A stretch of DNA of 19,149 nt from UHGV virus genome UHGV-0137562; one strand, written 5' to 3'. This document shows, piece after piece, positions 15,049-16,724 of the stretch (positions are counted from its first letter, which is position 1; each line of letters begins with the position of its first letter). A program made the translations under genes and the position numbers. Under the pieces are notes generated by a model. The model was given only the letters and a program-made list of their open reading frames with translations, was not told the origin of the DNA and did not search any database. The stretch is from a virus.

Positions 15049-15687
15049 ATGAATATTGTAGCAAAATCAGATTATAACTTCCAAGGATTCACTTTTAACC
15101 CTGTAACAGAGGGCGGGTCTATCTGGTTTACCTCCACCGAACTAGCTAAGGCTCTCGGCTATAAAAAAACTGATGCCATCAGCCAAATTTATGCCCGTAA
15201 TGCTGACGAATTTTCCGACTCAATGTCATTGACCCTCAATATGAAGGTCAACGGAATAAACAATAGCTTACGTAACAAATCGGTCAGAGTTTACTCACTC
15301 CGAGGCGCTCACTTGGTGGCGATGTTTGCTTCTACGCCCAAGGCCAAAGAGTTCCGCCGCTGGGTGCTGGATATTTTGGATCGGCAGGCAGAATGCTCAC
15401 CGATTGCAAAACAGTTTACTGACGAAGAACTGGTTAATCTCTGCTACTTACAATTGTGGATGGAGAAGAGTCAACAAATGTGCAAACACATCTACCCAGG
15501 AATGAAGCAAATTGGTTCTGAGCTTTCTGGAAGGATTTACGATATTGCATATGAGACTCGCTACATGTCAGAAGAAACCAAGAAATCACTTCTTCGTGAA
15601 ATGAAGAATCTTGATCCCAACAATTTTGTCGTAAAGAACGCTCAGCCAATGCTGGCAAAACTTCGCGGCGAGGAATGGATTCATTGA
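15049..15687 (+). CDS. Bro-N domain antirepressor-like protein, 212 aa
   Basis: N-terminal region (FQGFTFNPVTEGGSIWFTSTELAKALGY ... LRGAHLVAMFASTPKAKEFRRWV) matches the Bro-N / AntA-type antirepressor fold signature, including the terminal A..F..WV motif. AAGGA RBS 7 nt upstream of ATG 15049. Lies directly downstream of the Arc-like gene, as ant does in P22. Confidence 0.72.
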   Translation: MNIVAKSDYNFQGFTFNPVTEGGSIWFTSTELAKALGYKKTDAISQIYARNADEFSDSMSLTLNMKVNGINNSLRNKSVRVYSLRGAHLVAMFASTPKAKEFRRWVLDILDRQAECSPIAKQFTDEELVNLCYLQLWMEKSQQMCKHIYPGMKQIGSELSGRIYDIAYETRYMSEETKKSLLREMKNLDPNNFVVKNAQPMLAKLRGEEWIH

Positions 15688-15774
15688 TTGGCGCACAGGA
15701 CGGCGCAAAAGAAAACCGCCAGTGTGCTGCTGGCGGCCTATGTCACACCCTTACTACCACATAAGGAATGCCTA

Positions 15775-16503
15775 ATGACTTTTAAGAATGTAGCAAACAT
15801 CGGATCCGTTGTCACGGATAAAACCATTGACAGCCAGCGCCTGCTTGAGATGGTAAATCAGGCTCGTAGACAGTGCGGTGAGCCGGAGGTTCGTAATAAC
15901 AAATTCATCGAGAAAATTGAAGATGAATTGGATGGAGAGCACTACACAAAAAGTGTAGTGCAAAAAGCGAACAAAACTTCGATGGTTATCATTGAGATGT
16001 CAATCAAGCAAGCATTGCGAGTTGCCGCTCGCGAGTCAAAAGCCGTTCGCCGCTCACTGGTAGACCAACTTGAAAGTATGCAAGAAGCGCACATTAAAAG
16101 CGGTAAATCAGCGAGTGGACTTGTTGAGTATCGCCAGGCGCGAACATTGAAAATGACGGTTGAAGCTGTTACCAATCTGTTCGATTTGATGCCAAATCTT
16201 GCGCCGGAAGCAAAGCAGACTGCAGCAGCAAGCATAATCAACCCGATCGTTGGTTTTAATGCAATACCTCTTCCAGCAATAGAAGAGCATTACTACTCAG
16301 CAGGGGAGGTTGCAGAGCAGCTTGGAGTAACGGCCAACAAGATTGGTCGCATTGCTAACGCAAACAACCTCAAAACTGAGCAGTACGGTAAGTTCTTCCT
16401 GGATAAATCTGCGCATTCCAGCAAACAGGTGGAAGCATTCCGCTACAATGCGGAAGGTGTTAAAGCACTACAACACCTGATTCATGGGAGTAATGTTGCA
16501 TAA
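15775..16503 (+). CDS. Hypothetical protein, 242 aa, possibly antirepressor-associated / DNA-binding
   Basis: ATG 15775 preceded by AAGGA with 7-nt spacing; the track start at 15688 is a TTG. C-terminal segment YYSAGEVAEQLGVTANKIGRIANANNLKTEQYGKFF looks helix-turn-helix-like. No confident family assignment. Confidence 0.5.
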   Translation: MTFKNVANIGSVVTDKTIDSQRLLEMVNQARRQCGEPEVRNNKFIEKIEDELDGEHYTKSVVQKANKTSMVIIEMSIKQALRVAARESKAVRRSLVDQLESMQEAHIKSGKSASGLVEYRQARTLKMTVEAVTNLFDLMPNLAPEAKQTAAASIINPIVGFNAIPLPAIEEHYYSAGEVAEQLGVTANKIGRIANANNLKTEQYGKFFLDKSAHSSKQVEAFRYNAEGVKALQHLIHGSNVA

Positions 16504-16724
16504 TGGCAAAGAAAAAATATGGCATTATGCCGCCAAGAATCAAAGGAAGAGCCAGGGTAAAAGGCGATGCTGGAAGGTATCACATTCTTGGAGTTCTGTG
16601 GCATGAGAGAGCTTTAATTTTAAGTAGACCTCATGGGTACATTGAAAAGGTATCTATAGATAGAGTAGAGATTCTTCCCCTTACACCTGAAGAAGAAGAA
16701 ACGTACGGACTTTTTGATAACTAA
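16503..16724 (+). CDS. Small hypothetical protein, 73 aa, translationally coupled to the upstream ORF
   Basis: ATG overlaps the upstream stop (TAATG at 16501-16505). Basic N-terminus (MAKKKYGIMPPRIKGRARVKGD), acidic C-terminus (TPEEEETYGLFDN). Followed directly by a terminator. Confidence 0.45.
   Translation: MAKKKYGIMPPRIKGRARVKGDAGRYHILGVLWHERALILSRPHGYIEKVSIDRVEILPLTPEEEETYGLFDN

Follow-up and report, generated by a model that had tools for sequence, protein, structure and literature searches.

UHGV virus genome UHGV-0137562 was analysed as a single stretch of 19,149 nucleotides, to which we refer as the window. Positions 15049 to 16724 hold a cassette of three genes in the place occupied by the ant gene in phage P22. 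We call the first two genes antA and antB, and the third, which encodes 73 residues, orf73. They are arranged in the order antA, an 87-bp gap (15688-15774), antB, orf73 and a terminator. The initial annotation had placed the three open reading frames (ORFs), the gap and the stop/start overlap between antB and orf73 correctly, and its statement that P22 has a single ant gene here agrees with the annotated P22 record. We think it probable that the cassette is an expanded immI ('ant moron') operon of a P22-like prophage, encoding two Ant proteins that would each have their own antisense RNA. The cassette contains the following features (E, expectation value; nt, nucleotides; SD, Shine-Dalgarno sequence).

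15049..15687, plus strand: antA (gene 1), 212 residues, with a Bro-N domain at residues 19-109 (PF02498, E 1.3e-10) and a P22 Ant C-terminal domain at residues 121-188 (PF10548, E 2e-13)
15775..16503, plus strand: antB (gene 2), 242 residues, ATG at 15775, TAA at 16501-16503; N-domain at about residues 14-107, helical linker, C-domain at about residues 107-240
16503..16724, plus strand: orf73, 73 residues, ATG at 16503, TAA at 16722-16724; the ATG shares its A with the antB stop codon (TAATG)
14975..15048, minus strand: sar1, predicted antisense RNA of about 74 nt with two hairpins, covering the antA SD and ending at the arc stop codon; ends predicted
15055..15084, minus strand: Psar1, predicted promoter, TTGGAA-18-TGcTACAAT, inside codons 3-12 of antA
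15707..15780, minus strand: sar2, predicted antisense RNA of about 73 nt, covering the antB ATG (15775) and SD (AGGA, 15764-15767); ends predicted
15739-15713, minus strand: sar2 terminator hairpin from the terminator scan, ten pairs followed by UUUUCUUUU (U-run)
15787..15815, minus strand: Psar2, predicted promoter, GTGACA-17-TGcTACATT, embedded in codons 5-14 of antB

The cassette is set in a late region like that of P22. Upstream are ORFs of the sizes of portal, scaffold and coat genes, followed by genes for a gp16-type ejection protein, a sieA-like protein, a mnt-like repressor (minus strand) and arc, then the cassette, a convergent second Arc-family gene and the tailspike gene. The ORF at 11875-13716 is 80-100% identical to proteins with the Phage_P22_gp16 domain (PF26808), and the N-terminus encoded by the ORF starting at 17129 is 84-97% identical to P22-type tailspikes with a Head_binding domain (PF09008). 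As immI does in P22, the cassette sits between the homologue of gene 16, for the DNA transfer protein, and that of gene 9, for the tailspike. The control region is predicted from the sequence to be of the P22 type as well, having two ribbon-helix-helix repressors and divergent promoters, with the mnt-like gene transcribed leftward and arc being the first gene of the rightward operon:

14427..14726, minus strand: mnt-like ribbon-helix-helix repressor gene (PF03869 Arc, E 2.1e-17), divergent from the ant operon
14749-14722, minus strand: Pmnt-like promoter from the promoter scan, face-to-face with the Pant-like site
14728..14755, plus strand: Pant-like promoter, TTGACA-16-CATAAT, 11 of 12 consensus matches, laid out as the annotated P22 Pant
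14784..14975, plus strand: arc, 63 residues (PF03869 Arc, E 1.1e-11)
16731..16752, plus strand: intrinsic terminator closing the ant operon, an 8-bp stem with five G-C pairs and then a T-run; common to the convergent Arc-like gene

The Pant-like promoter is presumed to drive the whole arc-antA-antB-orf73 unit. Our scans found no plus-strand terminator-like site between this promoter and position 16731, and no plus-strand promoter-like site in the 87-bp gap between antA and antB. As no such site separates the genes, they are probably transcribed as one RNA from Pant. The terminator that ends the unit had been described as strong and bidirectional. Its plus strand is indeed scored by the scan; the minus strand, with a tail of TTTAGTT, is not, so that 'bidirectional' is correct only in part. 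The stop codon of the convergent Arc-like gene sits in the terminator loop.

The closest sequenced relative is Escherichia phage JEP4 (Lederbergvirus), which is 95.8% identical over positions 14969-17141 and in which the three cassette genes carry the labels 'Rha protein', 'KilA protein' and 'hypothetical protein'. The whole cassette, at a coverage of at least 80%, is present in 53 of 5426 complete Escherichia coli genomes (about 1%). There the Prokaryotic Genome Annotation Pipeline (PGAP) names the antA product 'P22AR C-terminal domain-containing protein' and the products of antB and orf73 'hypothetical'. The cassette is common and already deposited in annotated genomes, and that the ant moron varies is documented: it comes in ten types in sixteen P22-like genomes and is a hot-spot for accessory genes (PMC2629481).

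The antA and antB proteins

By its predicted domain composition, antA is a complete short Ant antirepressor (Bro-N plus P22_AR_C). The initial annotation was right about the Bro-N domain, but the protein is more than just a Bro-N protein. antA matches the PHROG family phrog_245 ('anti-repressor Ant') at E 5e-50, and its C-domain aligns with residues 206-274 of P22 Ant at 29% identity (BLASTP, E 2e-9). The homology to P22 ant runs through the C-domain only, the N-domain of antA being Bro-N and not P22_AR_N. At 95% DNA identity and without antB, the gene occurs in Salmonella phages SPN3UB, S107 and relatives. Some gene callers choose an alternative start at ATG 14965, which would give a protein of 240 residues and an overlap with the arc stop codon. 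We prefer the start at 15049 because of its good SD (AAGGAA), a mosaic boundary with SPN3UB and S107 at 15047, and the position of the sar-type promoter; the stretch between the two start codons comprises the sar1 template and the mosaic boundary.

Several lines of evidence support antB as a second, unrelated member of the antirepressor superfamily. Over its full length the predicted protein matches phrog_1726 ('anti-repressor', E 9e-101), and its homologues form 2116 clusters, mostly from Enterobacterales prophages. Residues 14-106 are 66% identical over 95 residues (E 6e-39) to residues 112-206 of P1 Ant1, which is the start of Ant2. According to the P1 record, this product antagonises C1 repression via an Ant1/Ant2/C1 complex. 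P1 Ant1 has a C-terminal ANT/KilAC domain (PF03374, E 1.2e-30); antB does not match PF03374 at E≤0.1, and the C-halves of the two proteins do not align. There is also no similarity of antB to antA, P22 Ant or P1 KilA. Longer forms of antB starting from TTG 15688 or GTG 15724 were rejected in favour of ATG 15775, as distant homologues have stop codons in the upstream extension.

An exhaustive search of 1.84 billion representative sequences returned 925 relatives of antB, among which the two halves of the protein recur independently. The 70 representatives that share only the C-half have as N-terminal partners Bro-N (21), Rha (pRha, 15), KilA-N (12), ORF6N (10), AntA (6) and P22_AR_N (3). The 22 representatives that share only the N-half include six with ANT/KilAC and one with ORF6N. 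Both modules thus recombine with domains of the antirepressor set, a mix-and-match pattern that is characteristic of phage antirepressor and Bro-type proteins. Iyer, Koonin and Aravind reportedly described in 2002 a domain-shuffling family of phage 'antirepressor' proteins, in which Bro-N, KilA-N, Rha, ORF6N or AntA domains are combined with KilAC, ORF6C or P22_AR_C. antB resembles this family in its two-module construction, in the recurrence of its modules with partners from the same domain set, and in having its structural neighbours there. It differs in that neither of its modules has a Pfam model and that its N-module could not be linked to Bro-N. The AlphaFold model of antB (predicted local distance difference test score, pLDDT, 72) consists of an alpha/beta N-domain, a helical linker and a C-terminal winged helix-turn-helix, predicted to be of the MerR/Xis type. 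Structural neighbours of this model in BFVD are proteins named antirepressor, KilA or Rha.

The suggestion that the 242-residue protein might be an alternative antirepressor is supported by the PHROG match, the identity to P1 Ant, the partners of the C-domain and the structural neighbours. The initial annotation had also stated that a confident match of this protein to an antirepressor C-terminal domain (KilA-C/ORF6C type, for instance), together with a 73-residue protein of no phenotype, would reduce the cassette to a conventional Ant variant; a link to known antirepressor modules essentially exists. The companion idea of a split antirepressor is not supported: antA and antB are each complete two-domain proteins without mutual similarity, antA is found alone in SPN3UB-type phages, and relatives of antB are found without antA in Shiga toxin (Stx) phages.

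The predicted antisense units sar1 and sar2

The arc-antA spacer aligns with the annotated sar region of P22, including its promoter and terminator, and sar1 is a predicted homologue of P22 sar. The P22 record places Psar at +6 to +34 of ant, a terminator in the arc-ant spacer, and the end of the 70-nt sar RNA at the arc stop codon. In P22 and in all homologues, the -10 hexamer ends at ATG+6 as in Psar1; the P22 record has Psar at the equivalent place. sar1 is predicted to fold into two hairpins (z-score -5.1). This two-hairpin design recurs in 50 distinct loci of the antA type and in P22, with differing stem sequences and many compensatory changes.

The 87-bp gap between antA and antB, which had been treated as empty, appears to hold a second antisense RNA gene of the sar type. 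Given a minus-strand promoter in codons 5-14 of antB and a minus-strand terminator in the gap, an RNA of about 73 nt over the antB SD and ATG is predicted; its existence and its repressing action are proposed by analogy with P22 sar. In 14 of 15 loci with full-length homologues, Psar2 occupies the same position, where its -10 ends at ATG+12. These loci come from at least eight genera (Serratia, Pantoea, Citrobacter, Kluyvera, Buttiauxella, Proteus and others) and encode proteins of 46-98% identity, and a minus-strand hairpin with a U-run lies 35-60 nt upstream. Among 21 distinct 5' ends of antB, codons 5-7 (A[AC]T [GT]TA [GA]CA) and 12-14 (xxT GTC ACx) are nucleotide-invariant in all 21. The wobble bases of codons 6, 7, 12 and 13, which fall within the -35, TG and -10 elements, are likewise invariant in 21 of 21, while codons 8-11, the spacer of Psar2, vary freely.

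The helix of the sar2 terminator is conserved in the manner of an RNA structure. It is 99.1% paired over 25 distinct sequences, and four of its nine pairs show changes on both sides (compensatory). None of 500 shuffles reached the observed covariation score, control windows slid along the alignment gave 19-54% pairing, and RNAalifold predicts the same helix independently. At E≤0.01, our covariance model of sar2, R1, matches 52 of 78 sources. All of these matches lie on the minus strand and stop 8 nt into an ORF of the antB type, even where the N- or C-domain of the relative has been swapped or has diverged. R1 does not match P22 sar, P1, or the homologue loci in Stx phages and other lambdoid early regions. 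In their predicted anatomy, both sar1 and sar2 belong to the functional class of sar: a cis-antisense RNA of about 70 nt with its promoter in the 5' coding region of an ant gene, its terminator in the preceding spacer and the SD covered.

The same observations could be read without an RNA gene, the hairpin being a recombination joint or an insulator, and codon conservation giving rise to the 'promoter'. Module boundaries do coincide with the hairpin, and residues V13 and T14 of antB are conserved. We nevertheless consider this improbable, as four-fold-degenerate wobble bases in the hexamers are invariant while neighbouring codons vary, the stem is kept by compensatory changes with the U-run always on the minus strand only, and the geometry, with a promoter in the 5' coding region and a terminator in the spacer, copies that of the sar unit defined experimentally in P22. 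A further, weak minus-strand hairpin with a T-run at 16535-16520, inside the 5' end of orf73, has no matching minus-strand promoter downstream and is probably due to chance.

The proposed antB module and orf73

We surveyed the context of 97 loci that contain a full-length antB homologue. A tblastn search found an antA-like gene directly upstream of antB in 86 of them, and five more (L075, L134, L135, L011 and L141) have an upstream gene with Bro-N or with P22_AR_N plus P22_AR_C, giving a total of about 91 of 97. Pfam was run on L075 and L011; the assignment of L134, L135 and L141 follows from near-identical ORF maps and tblastn rows. The remaining loci are one rearranged phage, phiKp_30, and five lambdoid early-region contexts, which also lack sar2. 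Where examined, a small arc and a mnt-like gene lie further upstream of antB. The upstream partner itself is variable, with at least three architectures and identities ranging from 28% to 99%.

Similarity between differing contexts stops immediately 5' of the sar2 terminator, and in every antB lineage a terminator follows directly after antB or orf73. The simplest reading suggests that sar2 and antB form a promoter-less module, which would depend on read-through from a resident ant operon and is found behind one for this reason. In a functional form of the split antirepressor, antA and antB would be active only jointly, as a two-subunit antirepressor resembling the Ant1/Ant2 complex through which P1 Ant acts. 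In its favour, antB does almost always lie immediately 3' of another ant gene. We find it very improbable: an interchangeable upstream partner is hard to square with a specific heteromer, antA stands alone in SPN3UB-type phages, the Stx-phage early regions have antB relatives and no antA, AntA and AntB share no similarity, and the lack of a promoter of its own explains the co-location of antB more simply.

In Klebsiella phage phiKp_30 (locus L002), two perfect 50-nt direct repeats (3341-3390 and 4449-4498) flank a segment of 1,058 bp that contains the last 20 nt or so of antA, sar2, antB, the terminator and the Arc-like gene's 3' part. It looks as if the module had been transplanted to a different genomic place with target duplication. 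The slot after antB is a cargo site. In Proteus faecis (locus L015, 3845-4441), a 198-residue ORF with an ADP-ribosyltransferase exoenzyme toxin domain (PF03496, E 7e-10) lies directly 3' of the antB homologue, in the place of orf73 and the Arc-like gene of our window, and other lineages have lipoprotein-like ORFs in this slot.

By its pattern of substitutions, orf73 is a real gene under purifying selection. Codons 19-73 of 23 distinct alleles contain 11 synonymous and 4 non-synonymous variant sites, against 36.7 synonymous and 128.3 non-synonymous sites available, which gives a ratio of non-synonymous to synonymous rates (dN/dS) of about 0.1. When these variant sites are read in the two alternative frames, the synonymous:non-synonymous ratios are 3:12 and 1:14. 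The first 18 codons (16506-16560), which cross an A-tract (GCAAAGAAAAAATATGG), are evolutionarily unstable, and codons 19-73 are almost invariant. Three variants (P0123, P0124 and P0126) carry a frameshift followed by a second indel that restores the frame just before V19, which speaks for the overlapping ATG as the start of translation. The antB allele linked to orf73 ends ...GGG AGT AAT GTT GCA TAATG, placing a GGGAG 13 nt upstream of the orf73 ATG, and the allele without orf73 ends GGC TCA AAT GTG GCG TAA.

The distribution of orf73 is narrow. It matches phrog_4977 at E 5.5e-54, forms eight clusters among 5.8 billion proteins and occurs in one INPHARED phage; 54 E. coli genomes contain it, compared with 141 that contain antB DNA. 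It is present in 45 of the 97 antB loci, only together with antB alleles of about 90% identity or more, and absent from the other 52. The presence/absence polymorphism is clean, with all other lineages having antB followed directly by the terminator. The model of the orf73 protein (pLDDT 64) shows a three-stranded beta unit and a short helix, with a beta core at residues 26-51, a basic N-tail and an acidic C-tail. Searched as a single sequence and as a profile, the protein has no significant match in Pfam, NCBIfam, PADLOC or the Protein Data Bank (PDB), and the model has no significant fold match. We also considered a relationship to P1 Icd, which has 73 residues and is coupled to ant as well; the two share no sequence similarity, and we regard the resemblance as coincidence. 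In one locus with a decayed cassette (L005), antA and antB are fragmented and an orf73-like ORF is intact.

The initial annotation had raised the possibility that antB and orf73 are an unrelated anti-defence or abortive-infection pair. More broadly, antB-orf73 or orf73 alone might be an anti-defence, abortive-infection or toxin-antitoxin type module that borrows the Arc-regulated promoter. A stop/start overlap like theirs is seen in many two-gene modules, orf73 has no recognisable family or fold, and accessory genes are known to gather in the ant moron (PMC2629481). However, PADLOC gave only noise-level matches (best E 0.0036, over a short stretch), antB belongs to the antirepressor domain network, and orf73 is no obligate partner, since about half of the antB loci lack it, as do all antB alleles of less than about 90% identity. 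As antB can do without orf73, the two are unlikely to form an obligate toxin-antitoxin or defence pair, and the borrowed-promoter explanation as a whole has little probability in our view; the pair proposed initially has no support.

Proposed mechanism, known systems and neighbouring genes

The arrangement that we favour, an immI operon with two ant genes, would read mnt, Pmnt/Pant, arc, antA, antB, orf73 and terminator, with mnt transcribed leftward and the rest rightward. In a lysogen, Mnt would keep Pant off. Upon infection or derepression, Pant would give a single arc-antA-antB-orf73 transcript, until Arc shuts Pant down. In the sequence, each ant gene has a predicted minus-strand promoter with an extended -10 (TGcTAYAHT) in its first 40 nt or so and a predicted minus-strand intrinsic terminator just upstream. 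By analogy with P22 sar, the two cis-antisense RNAs of about 70 nt would pair with the respective initiation regions and limit the translation of each Ant; sar1 would be the homologue of P22 sar, and sar2 would have a different sequence and the same design. With a separate RNA for each gene, translation of AntA and AntB would be gated separately despite their common promoter. On the model of P22 Ant and P1 Ant, the proteins may bind and inactivate lysogenic repressors non-covalently. As all of their modules differ, they would probably act on different sets of repressors, widening the range of resident prophages or immunities that can be derepressed. The sar2 terminator, sar2 and antB would constitute a mobile module, docking behind the first ant gene of a locus whichever type it is, and orf73 would be a later insertion between antB and the terminator in one lineage of E. 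coli and Salmonella, translationally coupled to antB. Our guess is that orf73 is an accessory protein that binds or modulates either AntB or the target of AntB.

A bolder version of this proposal, which we put forward only tentatively and regard as rather doubtful, is that sar2-antB is a self-contained, horizontally mobile, 'safety-catched' antirepressor module. Lacking its own promoter, it would dock behind the resident ant genes of Arc/Mnt-controlled operons across Enterobacterales and supply P22-like phages with a second repressor-inactivating activity, separately gated and differing in specificity, used for cross-induction of, or anti-immunity against, heteroimmune prophages. orf73, as a small beta-barrel with a basic tail, would then be a dedicated modulator, either an inhibitor or chaperone of AntB or a helper of the antisense RNA.

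A number of observations weigh against the two-antirepressor interpretation. Psar2 matches the consensus at only 9 of 12 positions, and its -35 could owe part of its conservation to the conserved residues V13-T14. A consensus 5' hairpin of sar2 could not be recovered with RNAalifold, as this part is not consistently alignable. An Rfam scan found no match at E≤1 anywhere in 14300-17300, although Rfam contains a covariance model of sar (RF00262). P22 sar, searched in the same way, scores 97.8 bits. The model recognises neither sar1 nor sar2; for sar RNAs of phages that are not closely related to P22 it seems too narrow. Single-sequence and profile searches with antB gave no significant match in Pfam, NCBIfam, PADLOC or the PDB. 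A profile-profile alignment (hhalign) of its N-domain with Bro-N is topologically sensible, with a non-significant probability of 1.5%. The term 'antirepressor' for antB derives from homology of one domain to P1 Ant, from annotation labels and from the logic of the domain network. The window does not contain the C2-type repressor gene of the phage, so no target can be proposed. Finally, the modelled C-terminal winged helix resembles DNA-binding modules, and AntB could act on DNA and not on a repressor.

A different view takes antB as a DNA-binding transcription regulator (Rha-, KilA- or MerR-like) of phage or host promoters that has inherited its 'antirepressor' label. We judge this to be unlikely, though less so than the other alternatives: the N-domain is closely related to that of P1 Ant1/Ant2, for which the P1 annotation gives an anti-C1 activity, and about 91 of the 97 loci have antB in an ant slot under predicted Arc, Mnt and antisense control, a level of control known for a dangerous antirepressor.

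Compared with P22 immI, the cassette has the same slot, divergent promoters under predicted Mnt and Arc control, an ant gene with P22_AR_C and a predicted sar-type RNA before the first ant gene. The differences are that the first ant gene here has Bro-N where P22 ant has P22_AR_N, and that P22 has a single ant, whereas here a second, unrelated ant-type gene with a non-homologous antisense unit follows, and then a 73-residue gene. P1 shares with the cassette the homologous N-domain of antB, and its ant is, according to the P1 annotation, checked by an antisense RNA at the translation-initiation region, as is predicted for antB. In contrast, the C-domain of P1 Ant is ANT/KilAC (PF03374) and that of antB is a different one without a Pfam family; in P1, the C4 RNA is processed and acts in trans, and ant is translationally coupled to icd upstream of it, whereas a cis-antisense RNA is predicted here; and the gene upstream of antB is antA and not icd, the small coupled gene (orf73) being downstream and unrelated to Icd. 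With antA as the upstream gene and no Rfam match, we found no sign of P1-type control by C4 RNA and icd coupling at the cassette.

Genes annotated as antirepressors in Stx2a-converting phages (such as Lyz12581Vzw gp46, PA2) are about 60% identical to antB over the full length and cluster with ant genes of the AntA type. Unlike antB, they lie in an early or accessory region near int and not in an arc/mnt operon, and they lack the sar2 promoter and terminator, having a plus-strand terminator-like hairpin upstream instead. Our literature search found no functional study of these homologues. In the Gifsy and Fels prophages, several trans-acting antirepressors of differing repressor specificity also coexist, coupling the induction of different prophages (Lemire et al. 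2011, PMC3121763); those proteins are small, LexA-controlled and unrelated in sequence, in contrast to two large Ant-family proteins in one predicted Arc/Mnt-controlled operon. P22 Ant acts on the repressors of several phages; the trans-activation of resident prophages is its only reported activity and is thought to be part of its biological role (PMC3121763). We found no description in the literature of a consistent two-antirepressor operon, of antB as a fusion of a P1-Ant-type N-domain with a new C-domain of the antirepressor network, or of a second, non-homologous sar-type unit in P22-like phages.

A widespread operon that appears to encode two distinct members of the Ant family, both under an antisense brake of their own, would be a natural system for questions about antirepressors, such as whether they have diversified in specificity as tools of prophage cross-talk and anti-immunity. 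The antB family, with more than 2000 sequence clusters, is 'hypothetical' to PGAP and has no Pfam model, and our results establish its two domains as new families. sar2 and the divergent forms of sar1 are conserved predicted small RNAs that current Rfam-based annotation misses. Existing concepts are not overturned; a classical regulatory circuit is extended.

One further member of the repressor family lies next to the cassette:

16739..16996, minus strand: second Arc/Mnt-family gene (PF03869, E 9.9e-15), 85 residues in the JEP4 annotation; the ORF is open to 17077, for 112 residues

From its distribution, we treat this gene as a neighbour and not as a proven member of the cassette. It also adjoins the tailspike gene in phages VSe13 and Sf101, which have no antB and in which it is mis-named 'partition protein ATPase', and it is missing from many antB loci.

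On the other side, the sieA-like gene (13738-14409, minus strand) encodes 223 residues with several predicted membrane helices. It matches the SieA-like family of PHROG only (E 2e-20) and no Pfam family, and many otherwise near-identical prophages have unrelated genes in its place. In some E. coli prophages, NZ_AP019761.1 (H95) and NZ_CM129865/NZ_CM149865.1 (H115), the cassette is interrupted by insertion sequences of the IS3 family (IS1203).

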